DNA of 64,000 bases from a virus (Duplodnaviria > Heunggongvirae > Uroviricota > Caudoviricetes), in the IMG/VR virus record IMGVR_UViG_3300029828_000006, positions 1 through 64,000 of that record; one strand, written 5' to 3'. The position numbers and the translations under genes were made by a program. The number at the start of each line of letters is the position of its first letter. Position 1 is the first letter of the stretch. Below the pieces are notes generated by a model. It saw only the letters and a program-made list of their open reading frames with translations. It ran no database searches and was not told where the DNA came from. Below are positions 6,593-61,464 of the stretch, one piece after another.

Positions 6593-6608
6593 TGTGTTAG
6601 AAATTTAA
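6593..6608 (+). promoter_or_regulatory. conserved 16-bp motif TGTGTTAGAAATTTAA (candidate operator)
   Basis: Family consensus T(A/G)TGTTAGAAA(A/T)(C/T)TAA; at cre 3' end upstream of 6192..6536. Confidence 0.4.
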
Positions 6609-12467: not shown

Positions 12468-12860
12468 CTACCAGCGAGACAAACGAACAACATGTTTCAC
12501 TTTTGCGATCCACTGTCCGCGATAACTATTGATTACGGCCTGTGCCAGCTTCAAATTGGCTTCAAAATCAGCCTTACTACCATCAGACTCCACCAGCATT
12601 CCTCCATCTATTTCTGGTAAACATAGATAATCCTGCTCAACCTGCAGCGGCATTGATGGCTCTCTGAATGGGGTTACTTGCTCTGCTTTCCAGCGAAATC
12701 TAACCCTTATCCCCCTGGTGGTCATTACTAGATAGCCTGTTATAGTGCTTTTATGGCCCACATCAGTACGCGTGGCATTGCATGACACGATCTTACAGTT
12801 AGCGATAGACCACTCCATATTGGTGGCCTGTTGAGTGCTTAATTTGGTAGTCCCGTACAT
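12468..12860 (-). CDS. hypothetical protein (130 aa)
   Basis: Coupled to upstream gene; no domain recognised. Confidence 0.45.
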   Translation of the reverse strand: MYGTTKLSTQQATNMEWSIANCKIVSCNATRTDVGHKSTITGYLVMTTRGIRVRFRWKAEQVTPFREPSMPLQVEQDYLCLPEIDGGMLVESDGSKADFEANLKLAQAVINSYRGQWIAKVKHVVRLSRW

Positions 12861-13435
12861 CAGAAAGCCTCCCAGTCAGTCGCGATAATATCCACACCAG
12901 TTGCAAACCAGTCTGTCTGCGCCTGTAAATCACCATTCATCATTACCAGGCGAGGCATCACCATCACATCGCACCCTTCCACAATATCGAATGCCTCTTC
13001 CGGCAAGAATTCGAAGAGCTTTTCTTTGCTGCCAATGCTGCCACGGAACATCGATATATAGCTCCCTTTAGGCCATGATGTCCGCCGGGCATCAAGCCCT
13101 TTCATCATCCAGTAAAAAGCCGAGGAAAAAGGGATATTCTTTTTGCCAATGATTACATTATTCGCTTCTGTGTACTTCAGGAACTTAACTAACCTTACCA
13201 TTGACTCGGATAACGCAACGTATGGCTCATGATTGATTGCTGACACGCTTACACCGTGCAATCCAACGCTTACCACTGTCATATCGCCGCTCTGTGCGGT
13301 TTCGATATTGACGCCTTTGCGAACTAATGAGGCGTAAAGTTCCTCTCGCTTTTGGGTCCAGCGTTCCCGCTTCCCTATGAAGTCACTCAAAATGAGATCT
13401 TCTTCTGCATATGCGTTATCGTTCGCCATTAACAT
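12860..13435 (-). CDS. protein with C-terminal DUF2829-like domain (191 aa)
   Basis: AFYWMMKGLDARRTSW ... DIIATDWEAF matches DUF2829 pattern. Confidence 0.4.
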   Translation of the reverse strand: MLMANDNAYAEEDLILSDFIGKRERWTQKREELYASLVRKGVNIETAQSGDMTVVSVGLHGVSVSAINHEPYVALSESMVRLVKFLKYTEANNVIIGKKNIPFSSAFYWMMKGLDARRTSWPKGSYISMFRGSIGSKEKLFEFLPEEAFDIVEGCDVMVMPRLVMMNGDLQAQTDWFATGVDIIATDWEAF

Positions 13436-13889: not shown

Positions 13890-13965
13890 TGGTGGCCCCT
13901 ACCGGACTTGAACCGGTGACCGTGCGATTATGAGTCGCCAGCTCTAACCACTGAGCTAAGGGGCC
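13890..13965 (-). tRNA. tRNA-Ile2 (anticodon CAU, lysidine type)
   Basis: 76 nt with CCA; near-identical to recalled E. coli ileX; anticodon loop CTCATAA. Confidence 0.9.
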
Positions 13966-14683: not shown

Positions 14684-14950
14684 TGGTTATCCCTCAATAA
14701 ACATGACGTATTTATTAGGTTGCGGTGCCTGGTGCCTCCAGGTGACGTTAACCAGTTAACAATTAACGCCGGGATGTTTGACTTAACCACTAAGGAGGAT
14801 TGTTTTAACTGTTCCGCGTGCGCATAGCCGCATTCACCGCAATGGTAAGAGCACTTGGCTGGCTGGGCGGCGATGACGCCTGTACGCATTTGGTGATCCG
14901 GTTCTGCTTCCGGCATTCGCTTAATTAGCCAAATACTCTTAACGTTGCAC

Positions 14951-15037
14951 TGGCGGAGAGTAATGGAATCGAACCATCATCGCTTGCGCAATGGGACGGT
15001 TTTCAAGACCGTTTGAGCACCATGCTCCCTACTCTCC
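14951..15037 (-). tRNA. tRNA-Ser (anticodon UGA)
   Basis: 87 nt type II tRNA; acceptor GGAGAGT/ACTCTCC, anticodon loop CTTGAAA, long variable arm, CCA. Confidence 0.8.
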
Positions 15038-15654: not shown

Positions 15655-15730
15655 TGGTGCCGGTTAACGGACTCGAACCGCTGACATCCTGCTTACAAGG
15701 CAGGCGCTCTACCAACTGAGCTAAACCGGC
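15655..15730 (-). tRNA. tRNA-Thr (anticodon UGU)
   Basis: 76 nt; acceptor GCCGGTT/AACCGGC, anticodon loop CTTGTAA, CCA. Confidence 0.9.
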
Positions 15731-15734
15731 AATT

Positions 15735-15821
15735 TGGTGGGGAGTGATGGAGTCGAACCACCCGAGTCGCAATGACAGTAGATTTACAGTCTACCCCGCT
15801 ACCCCTACGGACTAACTCCCC
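15735..15821 (-). tRNA. tRNA-Tyr (anticodon GUA)
   Basis: 87 nt type II; anticodon arm AGACTGTAAATCT as in E. coli tRNA-Tyr; CCA. Confidence 0.85.
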
Positions 15822-15826
15822 TGAAT

Positions 15827-15903
15827 TGGCGATGGTGGGTGGATTCGAACCACCGACCGACAGCTTAGAAGGCTGCTGCTCTATCCTACTGAGCTACACC
15901 ACC
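15827..15903 (-). tRNA. tRNA-Arg (anticodon UCU)
   Basis: 77 nt; anticodon loop CTTCTAA; CCA. Confidence 0.85.
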
Positions 15904-16094
15904 ACTGTGCCGGGTACGTCTCCGGCGAGGGCTTCCACCTCCGTATGCTTTTCGGCGCACCGCGCCCTGGCTGCAATTCAGTAACAGGGGATGCATAACC
16001 CTGGCTTCCAGCGTGATTAGCGCCTTCAGCATGACGGGATATACCCGTAACCAACAAACTTTCCCATATACCATCAAGCAATGGCTGTTACGCG

Positions 16095-16190
16095 GGAGGG
16101 ACGTAACAGGTAAGGGCGCTGACCAGAAAGACCTGACCCTTCTCATTCATCTGGTTAATCACACCAGCGCCCTTGCCTGTTATGCCTCCC
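16095..16190 (+). repeat. long hairpin (17-bp stem, GGGAGG/CCTCCC extension)
   Basis: AACAGGTAAGGGCGCTG ... CAGCGCCCTTGCCTGTT; shares ACAGGTAAGGG start with minus-strand units. Confidence 0.5.
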
Positions 16191-16408
16191 CGTTCCCTAA
16201 TACACAGACGGGGACACTCTGCGGTCGATTTTTTGACGGGGGACGACTCATACCCCGTGGCGTCAGGCTTCTTAGGCCGCTACCATCATCAGATCATCGT
16301 TTGCATTTACTTTAATGGTCGGGTTCTAAACCGCCGCAAAGTCGCTAACCATGACGAAAACCCTAAAAAAGCCCACCCGAAGATGGGCAAATACGCTACA
16401 TCTCACAC

Positions 16409-16485
16409 AAGAAAGAAGCCGACTGCCTGAGCTGGATTCACTTTCAAATGCCCGCTGAAAGGGATCACAAGTCGGCTTCTTTCTT
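16409..16485. repeat. perfect 16-bp stem hairpin with 45-nt loop
   Basis: AAGAAAGAAGCCGACT ... AGTCGGCTTCTTTCTT. Confidence 0.5.
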
Positions 16486-16702
16486 GATGCGGCACTCTCT
16501 CCGCCCGTCACCGCTCTGTCTCGGTTGTCGCGTTTGCCACGCCAGCCATAACGAGGTTTAAAGTCTTTTCACGTTCCCATCACTCGACTGCCGTCTGTGG
16601 CTGTTCGTTGCAGCGGGGGTGCCTCCCCCTGGGGATATCCCCGGCCTTACCCCATTCTTTCAAGACACAATGCAAGGCCACATCCGCATAGGTGCATTAC
16701 CG

Positions 16703-16767
16703 CAACATTAAGGAGACTCAGGGCAAAAGGTAACCGCCACAAAAATCCCTATGCCTCCTTAATGTTG
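16703..16767. repeat. perfect 13-bp stem hairpin with 39-nt loop
   Basis: CAACATTAAGGAG ... CTCCTTAATGTTG with leader-like GCATTACCGCAA before it. Confidence 0.5.
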
Positions 16768-16966
16768 AAGATGTGCATTGATGATTAGATGCAGCATGTA
16801 CCGTTACTCTCTGCCGGACCATCATCAATGAACACCTTAAAAAGACCTTCCGTGGCTCAACATGTATTGTCGTTTACTCCGCAAAGTGCTCTCTCTGAAA
16901 CCACTTTCCGCACTAAACCTGTTGAACTTTGGTCTGCTCGGTGCCAAAGCGTGCTCTTGGTTTACT

Positions 16967-16982
16967 ATACTTTTCTAACACT
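16967..16982 (-). promoter_or_regulatory. motif variant (rc GTGTTAGAAAAGTATA)
   Basis: In non-coding region; partial match. Confidence 0.25.
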
Positions 16983-16994
16983 TTAATTTGTTAA

Positions 16995-17070
16995 TTGCTG
17001 GTGGGCAAACAATAACCAATAAGTGACTATCAAGCCCAGCAAGCGAAACGTGGGTACCGCCCACCAGCAA
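16995..17070. repeat. perfect 12-bp stem hairpin with 52-nt loop
   Basis: TTGCTGGTGGGC ... GCCCACCAGCAA. Confidence 0.45.
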
Positions 17071-17122
17071 GGAAAATTCTATGTTAAGTCATCTTCACAA
17101 TCAATACATTCGAATTGTGATT

Positions 17123-17138
17123 TTAGATTTCTAACACA
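17123..17138 (-). promoter_or_regulatory. conserved motif (rc TGTGTTAGAAATCTAA)
   Basis: Immediately beyond the 3' end of 17139..18362. Confidence 0.4.
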
Positions 17139-18362
17139 TTATTTCCCATAAAGATCTTCTACACCCCCATTCTTCTTATCCCATTCGTTCGCCCATACCC
17201 GGCAAGCGTCAATGATTTCCTGACGACGATCTCCTTGCATGAACGGAATGCTTTCATGGAAACAGCTTGGAATGCAGGCCACACTGAATACAGTATCAAA
17301 CTCCGTCTGCTTGATTGCCTCCAGCGTCTCCGGACGCATTTTTAATTCATCGATTGGCGCATCCTTAGAGTCCATAATCCGGCGATATAAGCGCGGAAAA
17401 TCCGTCTCCAGGTACGCCATAATTTTATCTGCGAGACATTCGTCTATGTCGGTATTCCAGTCCTTTTCGAAGCCCGGCAGGCGATAGTAAAGCGGCGTTC
17501 CCCATACCGATGGGATCACATCCATCGTTAACAGGCGATTAGTTCTGATTTGTTGATGGTAATTAGCCGTCAGCAGTGCTTCGCCACGCTGCCCAGTTTC
17601 CGCAACCAGGCCGTGCGGATACTCATGGATGTAGGCAATGGCATCCCTTCCATCATACATAAGTGGAAATGTCTCTGGTCTTTGTCCCATGCCACAAGCA
17701 CGGTTCAGATCGTGACCAAGCTGTGAGCACTCTCGCTTTAATGTTTCGATAATGCTCTGCGCTGTAGCCAACTTTTTACGCAGTGTGACGCCTTCGCCTT
17801 GATAATCAATGCATTGCTGATTGAGCTTGGTTAAACGCTCTTTTAGTTCCCGGCGCTCTCTTTTCAGCGTGCGGTTATCCTTCTCCGCAACATCCAGCCG
17901 CTTTGTCAGGCTGGGCGGATAGTCTTTTTTGTAACGGTTCAAATCGGCTTCGGCAGATTTACGCAGTGTATTTGCCTGTTCAAGACGCGCTTCCAGATTG
18001 CCGATCTCATTACGCATATTCGCGGCAAATTGATTAACTGCATCGCCCAGGCTTTCAACTGTCGCTGATACGCCTGTGACTTGTGAAAAACGGATCAAGC
18101 CATCATTAACGGCTTGTTGGTATTCCTCAAACTGATCCACCAGCTTATTGTAATCAACTGCCCCATCATCAAGCAGCTTGTTGATTTCCGCCACCAGGTT
18201 ATCTGTAGTGGCAATGACACTCTCGTGCAGTCGCTTTGACAGGTCATCTCCCGGATTCCGTTTCTGTATAAGAGCGATTTGTGTGCGCAGCGTTTCAATT
18301 GCTGTCGAGATAATTTCCAGATTAGAAGTATCAGTGTGTTGACTCATTGCTGTTCCCGTCAC
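17139..18362 (-). CDS. hypothetical coiled-coil protein (407 aa)
   Basis: ATG with GGGA RBS; N-terminal 200 aa heptad-rich, C-terminal globular domain unrecognised; motif at both ends. Confidence 0.55.
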   Translation of the reverse strand: MTGTAMSQHTDTSNLEIISTAIETLRTQIALIQKRNPGDDLSKRLHESVIATTDNLVAEINKLLDDGAVDYNKLVDQFEEYQQAVNDGLIRFSQVTGVSATVESLGDAVNQFAANMRNEIGNLEARLEQANTLRKSAEADLNRYKKDYPPSLTKRLDVAEKDNRTLKRERRELKERLTKLNQQCIDYQGEGVTLRKKLATAQSIIETLKRECSQLGHDLNRACGMGQRPETFPLMYDGRDAIAYIHEYPHGLVAETGQRGEALLTANYHQQIRTNRLLTMDVIPSVWGTPLYYRLPGFEKDWNTDIDECLADKIMAYLETDFPRLYRRIMDSKDAPIDELKMRPETLEAIKQTEFDTVFSVACIPSCFHESIPFMQGDRRQEIIDACRVWANEWDKKNGGVEDLYGK

Positions 18363-18372
18363 TTTGTTAAAT

Positions 18373-18388
18373 TAGTTTTCTAACATAT
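18373..18388 (-). promoter_or_regulatory. conserved motif (rc TATGTTAGAAAACTAA)
   Basis: 26 nt upstream of the 17139..18362 start codon. Confidence 0.45.
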
Positions 18389-18426
18389 TTTATTAGTTTG
18401 ATGACGGTATCGGAAGATGCAATAAA

Positions 18427-18456
18427 CAAAAAACCCGCTAATTGGCGGGTTTTTAT
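18427..18456. terminator. bidirectional rho-independent terminator
   Basis: AAACCCGC-loop-GCGGGTTT flanked by A-run and T-run. Confidence 0.65.
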
Positions 18457-18460
18457 GCAA

Positions 18461-18775
18461 TTACTGTGTTGCAGCCTGATAAATAAGATACGCGATAAAT
18501 ACAGGTACGATGGCCCATTGCAGCAATGAAAGTAGCCTCATTACTGTTATTGGGGTAACTCCATCCACGTATTGTTTCTCTGACATTTTCCCTAACCAAC
18601 TAACCGACAACAGTGCCGAGTTTTCCCCCAATTCCAGCTCTCTGAGAGCTTCACGGATTAACGGCGCTGTCACAGCCTTAACCGGTGTGCTCAACGTGAT
18701 ACTCCGCGTCCTCCCCGCATCGTCAGCGAACGCCAGACTCACATAATATTTTTTGCTCAATGTACAAACTCCCAA
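18461..18775 (-). CDS. small protein with C-terminal transmembrane helix (104 aa)
   Basis: Hydrophobic C-terminus LLSLLQWAIVPVFIAYLIY. Confidence 0.4.
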   Translation of the reverse strand: MGVCTLSKKYYVSLAFADDAGRTRSITLSTPVKAVTAPLIREALRELELGENSALLSVSWLGKMSEKQYVDGVTPITVMRLLSLLQWAIVPVFIAYLIYQAATQ

Positions 18776-18971: not shown

Positions 18972-19466
18972 TTAATCAAGACAAACATACTCCGTGATAG
19001 CTTTTATGGCTTCAGCGGCACTGCGCGCCTCAAAGCAGTAGTAACCGGCTTCAGTGAGGCGGGTCATCCAGACGAGTTGTTCGGGAGTCAGGCGATTTCT
19101 CCCATGTTTCATCTCAATGCGCATTCCGTGGTATCCCCCACAAGCAAGGTCTATAGAAAGATCGGGATATCCCTTCTTTTGGCCCTCTGCCACCATTTTT
19201 ATTGCCGTCCTTATGCCTCGCAGGCCACCGTTTGGAGTGGCGTGAGTATGCTCATACACATAACGCATATTGCGATACAACCAGTCCAGGACGCGAACCT
19301 GCTCGTAATGCTCATGGTTCCTTTTGATTAGATCTGGGTTTTTCTCCAGTTCTCTAAGAGCTGCGGCATGTGGGGATGTTTCAGAATATTCACTGCGACG
19401 CCTTCTCTTTCGCGCTATTTTTCTAACACACCCATTGATGGTAAATATGCGAAATAATAACAACAA
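18972..19466 (-). CDS. VRR-NUC domain nuclease (true start probably internal)
   Basis: KGYPDLSIDLACGGYHGMRIEMK matches PD-(D/E)xK VRR-NUC core; conserved motif lies inside the first 20 codons. Confidence 0.5.
   Translation of the reverse strand: MLLLFRIFTINGCVRKIARKRRRRSEYSETSPHAAALRELEKNPDLIKRNHEHYEQVRVLDWLYRNMRYVYEHTHATPNGGLRGIRTAIKMVAEGQKKGYPDLSIDLACGGYHGMRIEMKHGRNRLTPEQLVWMTRLTEAGYYCFEARSAAEAIKAITEYVCLD
19415..19430 (-). promoter_or_regulatory. conserved motif (rc TGTGTTAGAAAAATA)
   Basis: Inside the annotated N-terminus of the VRR-NUC ORF, implying a later true start. Confidence 0.35.
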
Positions 19467-27173: not shown

Positions 27174-27324
27174 AGGATTTCCCCCTCTAAACCGTAAAAA
27201 ATTCCGCTATGCGGTACGGTTGAGAGGGTATGGAGAATGTTATTTTCAGGGGGACGATACTACCGTCAAAATCACATACTCCCCATAGTTTGCCTACTTA
27301 TTAACCCATGACCGGGAGAAAAAT

Positions 27325-30547: not shown

Positions 30548-31546
30548 TCACCCCCTTCTAGAAACGAAGAGTAACGGGGTGGTGTTTTTGTTCTCCTTCG
30601 GTGATAACTCTGGTTCTTTCTTGCCTGATACCGGTAAGCCATAAGTAGCATTTGCCCCAAGAGATTCAAGCATCGCAGCCACTATGCGGGCATCATCTTC
30701 AGACTGCATACGGCAGAGCGCCCGGCGCTGTTCTGCGCTGATAAAAACAGGCATTTCCTGGATAGCGTCACGCAAAATCCGGCGGCATTGCTTTGCATTT
30801 TCCCCTTGGCTTTCCATCATCGCTGTTTGAGCGCGCAGCTTATCTCGAAGCTGTATGTTTTCCACTTCAAGGAGCATCAATTCTGATTCCAGGGCTTCAC
30901 GATGTGCAGATTCGAGCATGGCTTGCTGATTTTTCATTGCTGAAAAGTGGTGAACCAGATCCGTAGCTGCGTTATCGGTAAAACCTTGTTCGATAAGTGC
31001 TGCATGAATAGCCGCATCGCGCTCTTCTACTGATTCAAGCATCAGGCTTTTCTTGTCGAGGCTGATATAGTTAGGCACAGTTACGTAATCAAAGCCGTGG
31101 AAAGACTTTACCAGGGATACCGATGAATCTGGACCAGATGTAGCCCACGACCAACCACCAGCACCAGAATTAATCATGCCCTGAACAATACGCCCGGTGT
31201 CTGTATCCAGTATTTCCTGCGTATGAGTAACAATGCCGTTGTCGTCAATCGAAATGTCGATAGTCCTGTTTGACGGCACGTTCTCCAATACAACAGGCTT
31301 CCCATCTACCATCACAACAGAGACTTCCGGCAAGTTCAGGCTTTTCGTTTTGTTATAGTGCATCGCCCGGCGACCATGACCGTAATAACCATACATCTCA
31401 CCCAGCGCGATACGCTCTTTTGTTTCTGGCGAGTTGAATGTGTCTCGTACCGACTGAATGACGTAATTTCGGTTGTTCTGCGGTGTGTGTTTGCGGATTT
31501 TCTCTACCAGGGAGAAGCGATCCGTAACAGTATTCAGTGATTGCAT
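30548..31546 (-). CDS. head morphogenesis protein, Pro-like (positional)
   Basis: 332 aa directly downstream of portal candidate; coiled-coil C-terminal half. Confidence 0.3.
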   Translation of the reverse strand: MQSLNTVTDRFSLVEKIRKHTPQNNRNYVIQSVRDTFNSPETKERIALGEMYGYYGHGRRAMHYNKTKSLNLPEVSVVMVDGKPVVLENVPSNRTIDISIDDNGIVTHTQEILDTDTGRIVQGMINSGAGGWSWATSGPDSSVSLVKSFHGFDYVTVPNYISLDKKSLMLESVEERDAAIHAALIEQGFTDNAATDLVHHFSAMKNQQAMLESAHREALESELMLLEVENIQLRDKLRAQTAMMESQGENAKQCRRILRDAIQEMPVFISAEQRRALCRMQSEDDARIVAAMLESLGANATYGLPVSGKKEPELSPKENKNTTPLLFVSRRG

Positions 31547-31559
31547 TATTTCCCTCCGG

Positions 31560-33242
31560 TTAATTGCTCATCACAAATTTTGCAAAGTTTATTAACTGTT
31601 CTGGCGTCCAGTTTTCCGGATCGTCACCGGACGACAACGGCGCGGATTCGTACATACCATGCTCGCTGTTTTGCTCTGATTCATTCGCCTTAAACTCTTT
31701 GATCATGGTGTTGAGAGTGTCATCGTCGATGTGCAACTGCTCGGTGAACAGATAACGCATAAACGCGTCACTACCAGCCAGTTTCGGGTTGTTCTGGATC
31801 TGGTCCATAATTTGGGAGATGACAGCAACAAAGTTGGCGCGTGCATCCAGTTCTCGGTTTTCCTCTTCCTGGATAGCAGTGTTCATTGAGTTGAATTGCA
31901 CGTCATAAGGGCGGTTTGTTTCGGTGTAAACCTTGCCGTATTTATAAGCGAGGTGAATGTCCAGAAGCCGATAAATAGTTCGCTGGGCGGCCTGTCTGAT
32001 CCAGTTCGCACGCAATGCAGCCTGGATAGCAGTTTGCTGCCAGCCGCCTTCTCCAAGCCCTCCGCTCATCTGATCAGCCCAGCCAAGCATTGTTGCGTCA
32101 ATGCCGAGGCTTGCAGCAAGCTGCCGGAGGTGAAACATAACGTCTTCGATACCACTGATATCTGCGGGTATGGATTGCGTATCAATGGTGATGCCGTTCT
32201 TCCCGTCTCCCATAACAGGTATCAGATGGTTAAGCACAGTCGGAATAGCGTTAGCATTAATCGACCTTTGCGCCACCAGGTCACTATGACGCTTCAATGC
32301 CTGGCTGACGCCACGCGTATAGTTCGCCGCATTAACCGGGTCCAGTGTGTTCGTCGTAAGAGCAATCAGGCGGTCAATTTTGGCTGCATTATTTCGCGTT
32401 GATTTCAGCGCGGCGAGCGAAGCACATAAATTAAGGTAAGGTTCATAGCTGTATTCCAGGAATGAAGTTCCGTAATTCTGCGTCTCCATTAACGGCTTAT
32501 CAGCCTGATCACTTAACAGTGAGTACCCTTTTGTGCCGTAGCTAACCGGAATAACTTTATGCTGTGGCGTCCAATAGGGATTTTTCATGGAAACCAGATT
32601 CCACGGTTCGGTTATTACTCTGCGCAAACTATGCGTATCCAGGATGTAATCACCACTGAATCCAACCAGCTGGCTACCGCGATAAAATTCCTGGACGAAA
32701 TGTGGCAGAGTGTAATAACTGGACTCAATGCCTGTTATCCCCCTGCCCTGTTCAGCATAAGGTCGGACATAAGACACCCCAAAGATCGCCATGATCATGG
32801 CCCATGAAGGAAGTCCGTCATTAATCATCGCCCCCAAATCAGCGGTTAACTCTTCACATCTACTTACTGCCTCGGCATCGGAACCATCCTTTGGCGAAAG
32901 GATGAATGCCTGTCCGGTTTTTTTTGAAGGCGCAAGCGCATGTGCAATGTGAATGTTTAAAGCCGTCGAGATAGTCGGGCTTTTAGCCATCGTTTCCAGG
33001 ATGTTGTACTTTTGCAGGCGCTCGCCGGGCAGTTCAGCGGATAAAGAAATTGAATCTGCCTCACTCGTCATGCCATCGCTATTGCTCCCCAGGATGCCTG
33101 GACGTAAAGCAGACAGGCCGGAACGAGCAACGACACTATGTCCGCTCGTAAAAACGACCGGATCGGCGGGCGTAACATCACCACCGTTGAAGGCTTTCTT
33201 CAATGCTGACAGAAAGCCTTTATTTTTGTCTTTCGTTGCCAT
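31560..33242 (-). CDS. putative portal protein (Prt-like)
   Basis: 560 aa, position and size consistent with portal; no motif verified. Confidence 0.3.
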   Translation of the reverse strand: MATKDKNKGFLSALKKAFNGGDVTPADPVVFTSGHSVVARSGLSALRPGILGSNSDGMTSEADSISLSAELPGERLQKYNILETMAKSPTISTALNIHIAHALAPSKKTGQAFILSPKDGSDAEAVSRCEELTADLGAMINDGLPSWAMIMAIFGVSYVRPYAEQGRGITGIESSYYTLPHFVQEFYRGSQLVGFSGDYILDTHSLRRVITEPWNLVSMKNPYWTPQHKVIPVSYGTKGYSLLSDQADKPLMETQNYGTSFLEYSYEPYLNLCASLAALKSTRNNAAKIDRLIALTTNTLDPVNAANYTRGVSQALKRHSDLVAQRSINANAIPTVLNHLIPVMGDGKNGITIDTQSIPADISGIEDVMFHLRQLAASLGIDATMLGWADQMSGGLGEGGWQQTAIQAALRANWIRQAAQRTIYRLLDIHLAYKYGKVYTETNRPYDVQFNSMNTAIQEEENRELDARANFVAVISQIMDQIQNNPKLAGSDAFMRYLFTEQLHIDDDTLNTMIKEFKANESEQNSEHGMYESAPLSSGDDPENWTPEQLINFAKFVMSN

Positions 33243-52697: not shown

Positions 52698-52839
52698 TTA
52701 TTCCTCCGAAAAGCAGGTATCTGTTCATTTTCCAGAGGATAGGGAGTGTGTGATTTGCGATGGGGATTGAATGAAGATCTTTGCTGGTCGAGAAGCGATT
52801 ATTGAGGGTGATTTTTACACCTTAAGTGACGCTACTCAC

Positions 52840-52848
52840 ATATCCACA
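52840..52848. promoter_or_regulatory. DnaA box-like ATATCCACA
   Basis: 8/9 match to TTATCCACA, next to iterons and GATC sites. Confidence 0.35.
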
Positions 52849-52943
52849 GAGTATTTTTATAAACCTTTTTCCATTTTTAATCCTTTTTAGATCCTTTTTA
52901 GGCGTCGCTGGAGCCAGTAGTGGCGCGGGCTGTAGAGGAGGCT

Positions 52944-53061
52944 GGTGTAAGATTTGCCCTCAATTAAATACGATCGGTGTAAGATTTGCCCTCAAAAGGT
53001 GTAAGATTTGCCCTCAAAAGGTGTAGTAATTGCCCTCAAAGTGATGTAAAAATTGCCCTCA
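52944..53061 (+). repeat. five direct iterons GGTGTAAGATTTGCCCTCAA (incC-like)
   Basis: Copies at 52944, 52976, 52998, 53020, 53040 with 21-22 bp phasing; inverted copy at 52801. Confidence 0.8.
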
Positions 53062-53085
53062 CCATTTGAAGGATCACACAGGGTT

Positions 53086-53841
53086 ATGAACAGAGCGGAA
53101 TTAACAGCAAAAGCCGTCAGCCTGATTGAGTCAGCGACACCTATTAGTCGTAGTTTGGCACAAGCCAATGAGATCACGGAGGCTGCTTATCACCTGACTC
53201 GCGACCAAAAGCGACTGTTGTTTATTGTGGTGGGAAGACTTCGCTATGCTTCTAAGGATGGCGTTCTTGGTTCAGGTGCCTGTGAGTTGACGGTCAACGA
53301 ATATGCAGAGATGTATAATTTGCCCTCTGCTGAAGCCAGCAAGGATATTCGTAAGGCCATTTCAGGGCTTAGCGAGAAGAAAGTTACGATATATAACCCT
53401 GATGAATCGACCGAATCAGAAGACAGTTATGAGTCTTATCCTTGGATGATTAAGGATGCCTATTCACCACGGCGCGGGACTTACATTATTCATCTTAATC
53501 CATATCTCATGCCGTTTTTTACTCTGCTTGATAAGAGATTCACAAGGCTGAATTTTACCGAAGTATCTCGCCTTACAAATCCTTATTCTATGCGGCTTTA
53601 TGAGTCCTTATGCCAGTACAGGAAGGATGATGGAAGCGGCTTTGCCATACTTGGCGTCGAATGGATGCGGGAGCGTTATGGGTTACCAAAAAGCTATCAG
53701 CGGTATGCCGAATTTAAGAGAAGTTTTTTAACGAAGGCTGTAGCAGAGATTGAAAAAAATACAAAAATGAAAATAGTCTTCTCAGAGGTGACGGAAGGCG
53801 GCAAAGTTACCAGGATAAAATTTACCTATCAGCAGTCTTAA
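53086..53841 (+). CDS. repA: RepA-like iteron-binding replication initiator
   Basis: 251 aa from first ATG with AAGGA RBS; flanked by iterons on both sides. Confidence 0.65.
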   Translation: MNRAELTAKAVSLIESATPISRSLAQANEITEAAYHLTRDQKRLLFIVVGRLRYASKDGVLGSGACELTVNEYAEMYNLPSAEASKDIRKAISGLSEKKVTIYNPDESTESEDSYESYPWMIKDAYSPRRGTYIIHLNPYLMPFFTLLDKRFTRLNFTEVSRLTNPYSMRLYESLCQYRKDDGSGFAILGVEWMRERYGLPKSYQRYAEFKRSFLTKAVAEIEKNTKMKIVFSEVTEGGKVTRIKFTYQQS

Positions 53842-59621: not shown

Positions 59622-61319
59622 TCACTTTTTTTCGTTAACCTTGCCTGTCAGCATGTCGATAGCACCTTCTTTGGCACGAGTCAGACGCAGGCGGGTGAAG
59701 TAGTTTTCACCGTTGCGAGGATGTACTTCGTTGATGGCACTGCCCCAGAGAGTGGTACGGTTAACGAGAGACGGATTGGTTTCGTGCACGTAAGGGATTG
59801 CTGGGACTGCATCACCAGCAATCAGACCGGCTTTACCGATGCCTTCGCCACGCCCATAGAAGAAGATGTCATCCAGCCCGAAGTCATATCCCTGTGCCTG
59901 GAATTGCTCACAGACAGGTTGCGGCACTTCGTAAATACGAATCGTGCCAAACAGGGTGCCGATGTACTGTACATACGGCGACTGAACGTAACCTGGTGCG
60001 ATCTGGAAGTGCTGTGGAGGCAGAGAGCGCAGGAAGTTCGCGGCGTCACCACCAGCAAAGCCGCCACGAATACCCGTTGTCAGGGTACGATTTGCCATTT
60101 CTTGAGACAGAGCGTTTACTACGTGACGCAGGAGGCCGACCCAGGACTCATAGTTTTGAGCTTCCGGCAGAGCCACATCAAATTCACGACCATAAACGGT
60201 ATGGAATACTAGGGTGCGCAGACGCATGATGTCAGTCTCATGGGAGATCCAGTTACGCATCGCGGAGAACTGAAGTGCCGCTAATTCAAGGCCGTGCTCA
60301 CGGCTTAAATCGGATGCGGACATTACCGTGTGTTCGGATGCAATTACGTACTGGGACGGACGAACTTCGTACTTACGCATAGCCTGGTTGATCACCGGAA
60401 TCAGGCTTGGATTGCGCTCGATGTTAATTTCGACCTGAACAGCAATTTCAGTACCTTCTGGCGGAGCCTGGGTAAATGTAATGTCAATGACACCAGTGTC
60501 ATAGGCAACTTTGGCAGTCGCTGAGAAAGCATTACCTTTGCTGTCTTTAGCATTGAAATAAAGGTTGCCATCGCCGTCGTCAACTTTGGACGGTTTGCGG
60601 TTGATCAGCAGTTTGTTATAACCAGCGCGAAGCGGGCAGGATTGTCCCTCAAAATTTTGGATGTCGAACTGGAAGGTTTTGGTGCTGCCATCCCCTTTAG
60701 TGGAAAGGGTATACAGGCGCTTCATTTGAGAATAAACACCAGCTGACTGCATATTCAGTTCGTCACCTTGTTTGAAGGTGCCGAATTTTGTGCCTGCTAC
60801 GTTGACCAGTTCATAAATATTTGACTCGTCACGATCACAAGGAACAAAAGTACAGGCATCACTGGTAGCAGCGCCCAGAGAGGCAGGCAGAATTAGAGCA
60901 GCATATTGAGCAACTTTCATTACGCCGTCAGAGCTACGCATTGATTGCGCGACAGACTCAAACATCGCCTTACCCGTGCCTTCATGGGTATCACTGGCAC
61001 ATTCAGTCATCAGGCGTTCAAGAGCCATGTGTGCGTTCGCCAGGATGTCACTTGCCGGGTAATGACCATGTTGACGTTTATACTCATGCAGAGACATAGC
61101 CCACCCACCAGTGATCTGACGAGCGACCTCTGGATTTACGCCTTCAAACATAGGCACTTTCTGGATTGCTTTATCCAGGTTTTCCATCATTACTGCCTGG
61201 TCAGCAATCATGTTGCCTGCTGCATCGGTGGTCGGATCGACGGTCATAGCCATGACGCTTGCCGCCCGATTCATAATCTCGCGCTCGCGATCACGAGCTG
61301 GCTGAATGTTTTTATTCAC
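59622..61319 (-). CDS. putative major head protein (565 aa)
   Basis: GTG start; size matches P1 major head precursor; upstream of sheath. Confidence 0.35.
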   Translation of the reverse strand: MNKNIQPARDREREIMNRAASVMAMTVDPTTDAAGNMIADQAVMMENLDKAIQKVPMFEGVNPEVARQITGGWAMSLHEYKRQHGHYPASDILANAHMALERLMTECASDTHEGTGKAMFESVAQSMRSSDGVMKVAQYAALILPASLGAATSDACTFVPCDRDESNIYELVNVAGTKFGTFKQGDELNMQSAGVYSQMKRLYTLSTKGDGSTKTFQFDIQNFEGQSCPLRAGYNKLLINRKPSKVDDGDGNLYFNAKDSKGNAFSATAKVAYDTGVIDITFTQAPPEGTEIAVQVEINIERNPSLIPVINQAMRKYEVRPSQYVIASEHTVMSASDLSREHGLELAALQFSAMRNWISHETDIMRLRTLVFHTVYGREFDVALPEAQNYESWVGLLRHVVNALSQEMANRTLTTGIRGGFAGGDAANFLRSLPPQHFQIAPGYVQSPYVQYIGTLFGTIRIYEVPQPVCEQFQAQGYDFGLDDIFFYGRGEGIGKAGLIAGDAVPAIPYVHETNPSLVNRTTLWGSAINEVHPRNGENYFTRLRLTRAKEGAIDMLTGKVNEKK

Positions 61320-61448
61320 GGTTAAGCCCTAAATTCGGGCGCGGCGTGAAGGTTCTTTTGACGGGCTAACAATACCTACTTTGTGATTTAGTCAATAGGT
61401 TTAGTAAAATAAAATATATTAACACGCATGTTGTTATGTGATTTAATT

Positions 61449-61464
61449 TTAGTTTTCTAACACA
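61449..61464 (-). promoter_or_regulatory. conserved motif (rc TGTGTTAGAAAACTAA)
   Basis: Between divergent major-head candidate (start 61319) and 61478 gene. Confidence 0.45.

Follow-up and report, generated by a model that had tools for sequence, protein, structure and literature searches.

The founding member of the family to which the gene under discussion belongs is pmgS of phage P1, in which "pmg" means "putative morphogenetic function" only. P1 PmgS (YP_006559.1) has 420 aa, and pmgR and pmgS of P1 form one operon with no terminator between them, under the C1 operators OpmgRa/b. In the region of the P1 annotation that we fetched there are C1 operators at ban/tRNA (Op72), 26/pmgL (Op82), ppp (Op83) and pmgR-pmgS (Op86), and the last is annotated "controls expression of pmgR and pmgS". 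The two genes are co-transcribed, and pmgR alone of the two is essential, its deletion giving unjoined heads and tails (PMC9024508). P1 pmgS is non-essential, both by CRISPRi (EOP 1.2) and by deletion (PMC10695390). In the P1 structure paper 24 of 29 knockouts were without a plaquing or antirestriction defect, the five new essential genes do not include pmgS, and PmgS is not mentioned among the virion proteins of the virion proteome (PMC9024508). The scaffolding role in P1 is given to the N-terminus of the capsid protein gp23, with DarA/Hdf (PMC9024508; also a 2026 cryo-EM study).

The window described here, by which we mean the whole stretch of DNA that was analysed, is 64,000 nucleotides long. 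Over positions 16900-18600 it has 98.9% DNA identity to Escherichia phage D6, which is a P1-like plasmid prophage, and the two are collinear from dre/rox/c1 through pacBA-lpa, tciAB, the tRNAs, pmgS, pmgR, pmgM, ulx and darB to the capsid gene. The whole window is a plasmid prophage of the phage D6 type. E. coli plasmid CP088384.1 matches the stretch 15900-18500 at 100% identity, and 104 plasmids contain 80% or more of this stretch; phage-plasmids of this type often carry resistance genes. GenBank already includes the gene with its flanks, in phage D6 and in hundreds of E. coli and Salmonella plasmids, and there is no new element here. In D6 the gene is orf9 (ASR76320.1 / YP_009914686.1), the product of which is 99.5% identical to the window protein; around the D6 gene too there are the terminator, the motif copies, pmgR on the upstream side and the tRNA region on the downstream side. 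It is annotated "similar to P1 pmgS; putative prohead scaffolding protein", and the RefSeq and PHROGs name is "PmgS-like head morphogenesis".

The open reading frame of the preliminary description, 407 aa from a GTG at 17139-18362 on the minus strand in the program's ORF list, is present and conserved, with many invariant positions in the C-terminal domain in the family alignment. ATG 18347 is the likelier start, since PHROG 1660 (E 1.4e-146 to the 407-aa ORF) matches residues 6-406 at profile positions 1-404/405, a cluster of 922 database sequences has exactly the 402-aa product, and the homologues all begin to align at its Met. From these comparisons the true CDS is probably 17139..18347 (minus strand), of 402 aa; a start at GTG 18362 would make the product 5 residues longer. 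A GGGA stands about 6 nt 5' of ATG 18347, with nothing similar 5' of GTG 18362.

The window protein and P1 PmgS are collinear over their full length, with 21% identity over residues 11-395 (BLASTP, E 3e-13). They are similar in length and architecture: in both, a helical domain with CDDL/GDDL at the N-terminus is followed by a coiled coil and then by a C-terminal domain that finishes with W(D/E)K(K/E)NGG. Both genes adjoin pmgR, and a place directly 3' of pmgR in P1-like genomes is also found in the D6 annotation and in two more relatives. Judged by sequence, the gene is almost certainly the D6-group orthologue of P1 pmgS. The protein had been described as unknown: it now has a family (D6 orf9, the P1 PmgS family and PHROG 1660). 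Overall the observation made in the preliminary description is confirmed and its interpretation is partly supported.

The strong bidirectional terminator that had been claimed is an intrinsic terminator at 18429..18454, predicted by folding. Its hairpin has a GC-rich 10-bp stem between an A-run and a T-run and an energy of -19.5 kcal/mol (z = -4.85, 0 of 200 shuffles folding as well), and there are equivalent hairpins in two relatives, L014 and L015. Unlike in P1, it separates pmgS from its upstream neighbour, a pmgR-like gene of 99 aa (18461..18760, minus strand, D6 orf10 by annotation) that ends at 18461. Downstream of pmgS are about 1.2 kb with short unannotated ORFs only, followed by tRNA genes, and within this spacer we found no tRNA genes and no Rfam matches. 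The isolation of the gene holds, and it is a stand-alone transcription unit behind a terminator. As a point against the explanation preferred below, the neighbour pmgR is a head-completion gene in P1, and pmgS may have an accessory role in morphogenesis.

The explanation that we prefer, which draws on analogy with P1, is that PmgS is an early, C1-repressed, non-virion coiled-coil protein whose alpha-CTD-like module engages DNA or the transcription machinery. Our confidence in this model as a whole is about equal to our doubt, and for the biochemical role that it gives to PmgS doubt has somewhat the upper hand. In the lysogen the D6-type C1 would bind an asymmetric TGTTAGAAA-NN-TAAnnT site over the -10-like element of pmgS, and the terminator after pmgR would stop read-through into pmgS from upstream. 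On loss of C1, at induction or infection, pmgS would be transcribed together with lpa, repL, icd/ant, ref, hrdC-dmt and tRNA/tci. The product of about 45 kDa has an N-terminal helical domain, an interrupted coiled coil (the presumed dimerisation arm) and a C-terminal globular domain, and the coiled coil would present paired helix-hairpin-helix (HhH) modules to DNA, or to a partner associated with DNA or transcription, in the early lytic phase. Such a protein would be an accessory in phage DNA metabolism or in the takeover of the host, and could be dispensed with in the laboratory.

With regard to the protein, structure prediction bears out the proposal of a coiled coil and a separate C-terminal domain. 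The N-terminal helical region, aa 1-95 (18063..18347, minus strand), has the motifs GDDL and (E/D)xYNxL in family alignments; a profile of this domain found no relative in the PDB, with chance matches to haemagglutinin coiled coils only. The coiled-coil region, aa ~100-217 (17697..18050, minus strand), is defined by AF2 helices and the alignment. The long AF2 helices are at 35-91, 100-141 and 147-217, and the coiled coil is interrupted at a conserved Pro-containing YKKxYPxSL (aa ~142-146) and varies in length across the family. The full-length AF2 model, made from 9 sequences, is poor (pLDDT 60.7), and the relation of the N- and C-terminal domains and the dimerisation are guesses. For the single protein Pfam gave sub-threshold coiled-coil-type matches only, and a sequence search of the PDB gave no match.

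The C-terminal 193 aa are modelled well (AF2 pLDDT 93.2, pTM 0.87, from a 29-sequence alignment), and Foldseek found no whole-domain match for this model in the PDB or BFVD. The beta/alpha subdomain, aa ~219-329 (17361..17693, minus strand), has four beta-strands and two helices and is an orphan without a convincing structural relative. It is followed at aa 330-385 (17193..17360, minus strand) by an (HhH)2 module like that of the RNA polymerase alpha-CTD. The preliminary description could not assign the C-terminal 200 aa, which is still true of the beta/alpha subdomain and no longer true of the HhH module.

Several comparisons support the module. Among family members Pfam finds HHH_5 in 9 and RNA_pol_A_CTD in 7 (best E 5e-7), and two members have the NCBI names "RNA polymerase alpha CTD-containing" and "HhH domain-containing". 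The family profile matches the HhH domain of Brr2 Sec63, the Rad51 N-terminal domain and the RpoA CTD in the PDB, and hhalign of the family against the E. coli alpha-CTD gives E 8e-5. The module has the compact helical fold with two HhH motifs, which it shares with alpha-CTD (PF03118) and other (HhH)2 modules (Rad51 N-terminal domain, NusA AR1/AR2) at ~14% identity. Unlike alpha-CTD, it sits within a larger orphan domain at the end of a coiled-coil protein. At the alpha-CTD DNA-contact positions R265, N268, G296, K298 and S299 the window protein has E, E, Q, D and R, and its second hairpin is degenerate (PFMQGDRRQEI). In many other members the 265 position is still basic and 296-299 read GxK(T/S) (KG(M/F)GxKTA). 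Because the D6 subgroup has E, Q and D at the equivalents of R265, G296 and K298, canonical DNA contact by the window protein appears doubtful.

The likeness to alpha-CTD also raises the possibility, which overlaps in part with the explanation that we prefer, that the C-terminal module is a decoy that mimics alpha-CTD and reprogrammes host or phage transcription early after derepression, the targets titrated or recruited being activators, NusA AR2 or UP-element DNA. However the HhH fold is generic, with the Rad51 N-terminal domain, NusA AR and Brr2 scoring similarly, PmgS has no known partner, and there is no transcription phenotype, the P1 knockouts being silent; we consider this reading unlikely. 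A more general form is that PmgS belongs to an uncharacterised class of repressor-controlled early proteins, found in temperate phages and phage-plasmids, in which the coiled-coil arm bears the orphan beta/alpha domain fused to an alpha-CTD mimic and the protein acts on the transcription or DNA machinery of the host, as a decoy or as a tether. This seems to us rather unlikely, and if it is true the database-wide "head morphogenesis/scaffolding" label is wrong.

An exhaustive search with a profile of the C-terminal domain gave only 46 cluster representatives among 1.8 billion, and a second homologue search with a profile gave no further members. Nearly all full-length matches have 320-475 aa with the domain C-terminal, and the remainder are short fragments. 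The spread is broad but sparse, in temperate phages and phage-plasmids of Enterobacterales and Vibrio. In the relatives of the D6 group the synteny includes repL, a CHAP-like gene (D6 orf16), darB, ulx, pmgM (VRR-NUC), pmgR and pmgS, of which a distant member on a ~98-kb contig has kept just a DarB-like gene, separated from it by four gene positions on the upstream side. The settings of more distant homologues are early or DNA-metabolic. One, in a lambdoid prophage of Brenneria, follows RecT and a YqaJ exonuclease directly and precedes xis-int, in a PL-type operon. This place after exo suggested a relation to lambda Ea22, which was rejected at an hhalign probability of 0.3%. In Vibrio phage douglas 12A4 the homologue is the first gene of an operon that includes a DNA methyltransferase, and this operon diverges from ant, a methylase gene and a DnaC-like gene. 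Another distant homologue has a VRR-NUC gene, HTH regulators, an HU-like protein and an integrase nearby. None of the homologues examined outside the P1/D6 group is in a head module.

The broad but sparse spread is one of the points in favour of PmgS being a conditional, moron-type accessory in conflict between phage or plasmid and host, needed only in hosts with a matching system; it might for example act against a defence of the SMC type or a nuclease defence, or keep competitors out. It would fit with this that the gene is dispensable in E. coli K-12, and that the neighbours include the antirestriction genes darB and ulx, a VRR-NUC gene, a BrxR-like WHD and a Tad2-like gene. However PADLOC and NCBIfam show no membership, the coiled-coil matches (JetC, LmuB, SMC, Rad50) being sub-threshold at 13-26 bits against cut-offs of several hundred bits, and the P1 knockouts had unchanged antirestriction against the systems tested (PMC9024508). 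We regard such a role as distinctly unlikely.

In the explanation that we prefer the expression of pmgS depends on a motif that in the form TGTTAGAAA-NN-TAnnnT is found at each end of the gene. Exact TGTTAGAAA is on the minus strand at 18377-18385 (upstream of pmgS), 17128-17136 (3 nt beyond the pmgS stop) and 16972-16980, and there are 9 exact copies in the window against 0.63 expected. The extended pattern T(G/A)TTAGAAA-NN-TAnnn(T/C) has 10 copies in the window, as compared with 0.03 in shuffles. The upstream copy in the pattern scan (TGTTAGAAAACTAATTT, 18369..18385, minus strand) is 22 nt before the ATG, and by analogy with P1 we infer that it is a candidate D6-type C1 operator overlapping the -10-like TAATTT; no good -35 is recognisable upstream of pmgS, which counts against the explanation.

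The positions of the other copies are informative. In the window one is 28 nt before the c1 start, the motif also precedes icd/ant, and three copies face away from the adjacent gene, at 6595+, 12438+ (before lpa) and 30521+ (before repL). In the whole D6 genome there are copies at c1, lpa, pmgS, icd/ant (twice), hrdC-dmt, ref, ppp and the tRNA leader, of which that at hrdC-dmt has an inverted partner and that at ppp lies after the gene. Two relatives (L014 and L015, PmgS 45-52% identical) have the same terminator followed by a palindromic pair before pmgS, TTTCTAATA-N4-6-(T/C)(A/G)TTAGAAA, and have motif copies before c1 as well and, reversed, before lpa. The window, D6 and the relatives thus all have the motif at the C1-controlled gene set, in either orientation and sometimes paired. 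Against an operator function, one copy falls within the pmgM ORF and another between MCP and orf52.

P1 also has C1 operators at c1, lpa, icd-ant, repL, dmt and ref, which correspond to D6 motif sites, and Op99, Op88, Op51, Op53, Op68 and Op2 are further P1 C1 operators. Both the P1 operators and the D6-type motif are asymmetric and ~17 bp long, occur in either orientation and sometimes in pairs at the same gene set, and overlap promoter elements. They differ in sequence, the D6-type motif being TGTTAGAAAnnTAAnnT, and the P1-type consensus ATTGCTCTAATAAATTT is absent from the window, with 0 matches when up to 3 mismatches are allowed. Because its positions are those of the P1-like gene set, there are reversed and palindromic copies, and the late box is distinct, the motif is most likely the operator of the D6-type C1 repressor, and we treat it as the candidate site for D6 C1. 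This assignment is by position, orientation and analogy with P1. On the same analogy operator control of pmgS is probable, as is the conditional expression that had been suggested from the isolation of the gene: the motif looks like a prophage repressor operator, which would keep the gene silent in the lysogen and allow it to come on at derepression.

The motif could instead be a promoter element, with TGTTAGAAA-NN-TAAnnT defining a -35-less, activator-dependent class and pmgS and the tRNA operon forming a separate temporal class. The TAnnnT hexamer is at a fixed spacing in 9 of 10 copies, without a -35, and the geometry recalls P1 late promoters, which have a 9-bp box beside the -10. However three copies point away from their neighbours, including those before lpa and repL, there are palindromic pairs in relatives, the copy before c1 is at a gene that must be expressed in the lysogen, the positions mirror those of P1 C1 operators, and a second well-behaved box already covers all late operons. 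We consider a promoter element improbable. The possibility that TGTTAGAAA is itself the late-promoter box was dropped in view of the separate AAATCACA box, the reversed copies and the palindromic pairs.

The late box, AAAT(C/A)ACA-N7-(T/C)AnnnT, has 8 copies in the window against 0.25 expected, all co-oriented and close upstream of a late operon. The operons are those of darB, the CHAP-like peptidoglycan-hydrolase gene (D6 orf16), prt, ddrB, lydA, R, pmgB-sit and MCP. The box resembles P1 LP26, AAATGACTA-N4-TAGAAT, and an Lpa homologue is encoded in the window. In the window scan there is no AAATCACA-N7-TAnnnT upstream of pmgS, all 8 copies preceding other operons.

This bears on the annotation of PmgS as a helical prohead scaffold or head-morphogenesis protein, which would co-assemble with the capsid protein and exit before packaging. 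The scaffolding proteins P22 gp8, lambda Nu3 and phi29 gp7 are, like PmgS, elongated and largely helical, but they are essential, late and encoded beside capsid, portal or protease genes, none of which is true of PmgS. The gene at 17139-18347 is about 43 kb from MCP (59622-61319) and about 13 kb from the portal/protease genes (30548-33242). P1-like genomes scatter their structural genes. The D6 and PHROG names, a mostly helical protein with a coiled coil and the adjacent pmgR with its head-and-tail phenotype in P1 speak for a scaffold, but we find it very improbable, given that P1 pmgS is dispensable, that P1 has its scaffold in the gp23 N-terminus with DarA/Hdf, that pmgS lacks the late box that all true late operons have, that it is far from the head genes, that distant homologues are in early, recombination or immunity regions, and that 190 aa at the C-terminus form an alpha/beta plus HhH domain. 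The structural label is without experimental basis, and published P1 work and the evidence given here argue against it. In the preliminary description clear homology to a known structural protein was to count against its interpretation, and such homology exists nominally, through this label.

With regard to annotation, the element is known, and the re-annotation and two regulatory motifs are useful but incremental. Their value is in a sharper annotation, since the name propagated by PHROGs and RefSeq is argued against by P1 genetics and by regulatory and structural evidence, and in testable definitions, at the level of sequence, of the two regulatory codes used by D6-type phage-plasmids, the probable C1 operator and the Lpa late-promoter box. 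The alpha-CTD-like HhH module is the first domain handle on a P1 gene that has been without a function since the P1 genome was annotated.

There remain the motif copies downstream of pmgS. The first, directly after the stop codon (17120..17136, minus strand), is kept in L014 and L015, and the second (16964..16980, minus strand) is 156 bp further on, both being found by pattern scan. L014 and L015 keep the downstream pair, ~142 bp apart and followed by a tRNA or a P1-like leader. In the window there is a non-coding leader at 15825..16391 (minus strand) that is 88.5% identical to the leader of the P1 ban operon, the match running from the dicF-like region as far as trnA, and on this ground we assign the two copies to the tRNA/tci operon, as its first and second candidate operators. 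By analogy the pair would be the counterpart of P1 Op72 of the ban/tRNA operon. It had been stated that the gene is bracketed by two motif copies, and there are indeed copies at each end, but those downstream head the next operon and are not controls of pmgS. Overlapping the candidate operator at 17120..17136 is a late-promoter-like box, AAATCACA-N7-TGTATT (17103..17123, minus strand), with a weak -10; it fails the stricter late-box pattern, and whether it is a late promoter is uncertain. While pmgS itself is essentially alike in D6 and the window, the tRNA region of the window has an extra 248 bp and a different tRNA set.

A second regulatory motif is AAAT(C/A)ACA-N7-(T/C)AnnnT, probably the D6-type late promoter dependent on Lpa, a homologue of which is encoded in the window. 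There are 8 copies in the window as against 0.25 expected, with motif starts at 27225, 27269, 33275, 34722, 38494, 45360, 52736 and 61369, and every late operon is headed by such a box in the correct orientation. The D6-type box resembles the P1 late promoter LP26, AAATGACTA-N4-TAGAAT.

Two copies of the operator-like motif, the putative D6-type C1 repressor operator, are considered here. One (61446-61462, minus strand) lies between the major capsid protein gene and orf52. The capsid operon has late boxes of its own, at 61369 and at about 61424-61431 (AAATCACA), and the divergent orf52 (61478, plus strand) starts 16 bp from the operator-like copy, the target of which is probably orf52-53 and not the capsid operon. 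The other (19412-19428, minus strand) is an exact copy that falls inside the pmgM/VRR-NUC ORF as annotated (18972-19466), at its 5' end, and the -10-like part of this copy is poor (TAGCGC). It could be an operator internal to the gene or have arisen by chance, or it could indicate that the pmgM ORF has been given the wrong start.

In the PmgS family alignment (A3) the last two residues are -AA in 12 of the 42 sequences (...KAA and ...VAA, for instance), an ssrA-like ending that suggests turnover of the ClpXP type. Other members have basic tails or end in ...EQRGLN, and the PmgS-like protein of the window ends in ...EDLYGK.

The window has five tRNA genes (13890-13965, 14951-15037, 15655-15730, 15735-15821 and 15827-15903), comprising one with a CAT anticodon (Met/Ile2 type), Ser-UGA, Thr, Tyr and Arg-UCU. 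All are on the minus strand, whereas the D6 record has Ser, Thr and Asn tRNAs placed on the opposite strand, and the region is 248 bp longer than in D6. Upstream of the tRNA genes is a non-coding leader of 567 bp (15825-16391, minus strand) that shares 88.5% identity with the leader of the P1 ban operon and is found in roughly 480 P1-like plasmids, mostly without an annotated feature at that place. Its upstream end is a terminator-like hairpin (16371-16388). The adjoining 750 bp (16392-17138) are D6-group-specific; they match nothing in Rfam, and no ORF in them is annotated or convincing. A sub-threshold Rfam match (14721-14841, minus strand) to the gammaproteobacterial sRNA STnc100, with 40.1 bits for a gathering score of 47 (E 2.5e-6), lies between the tRNA-Ser gene and tciA.

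About four direct repeats of TTGAGGGCAAATCTTACACC within 52698-53052, adjoining the repA-like ORF (53053-53841), look like plasmid-origin iterons. The gene one upstream of lpa, with orf5 in between, is D6 orf6 (12860-13435, minus strand), annotated as hypothetical, in which Pfam identifies a Tad2-like domain (Thoeris anti-defence 2; E 1e-9, 39 bits with a cut-off of 25). The domain is also present in the corresponding gene of the relative L015.
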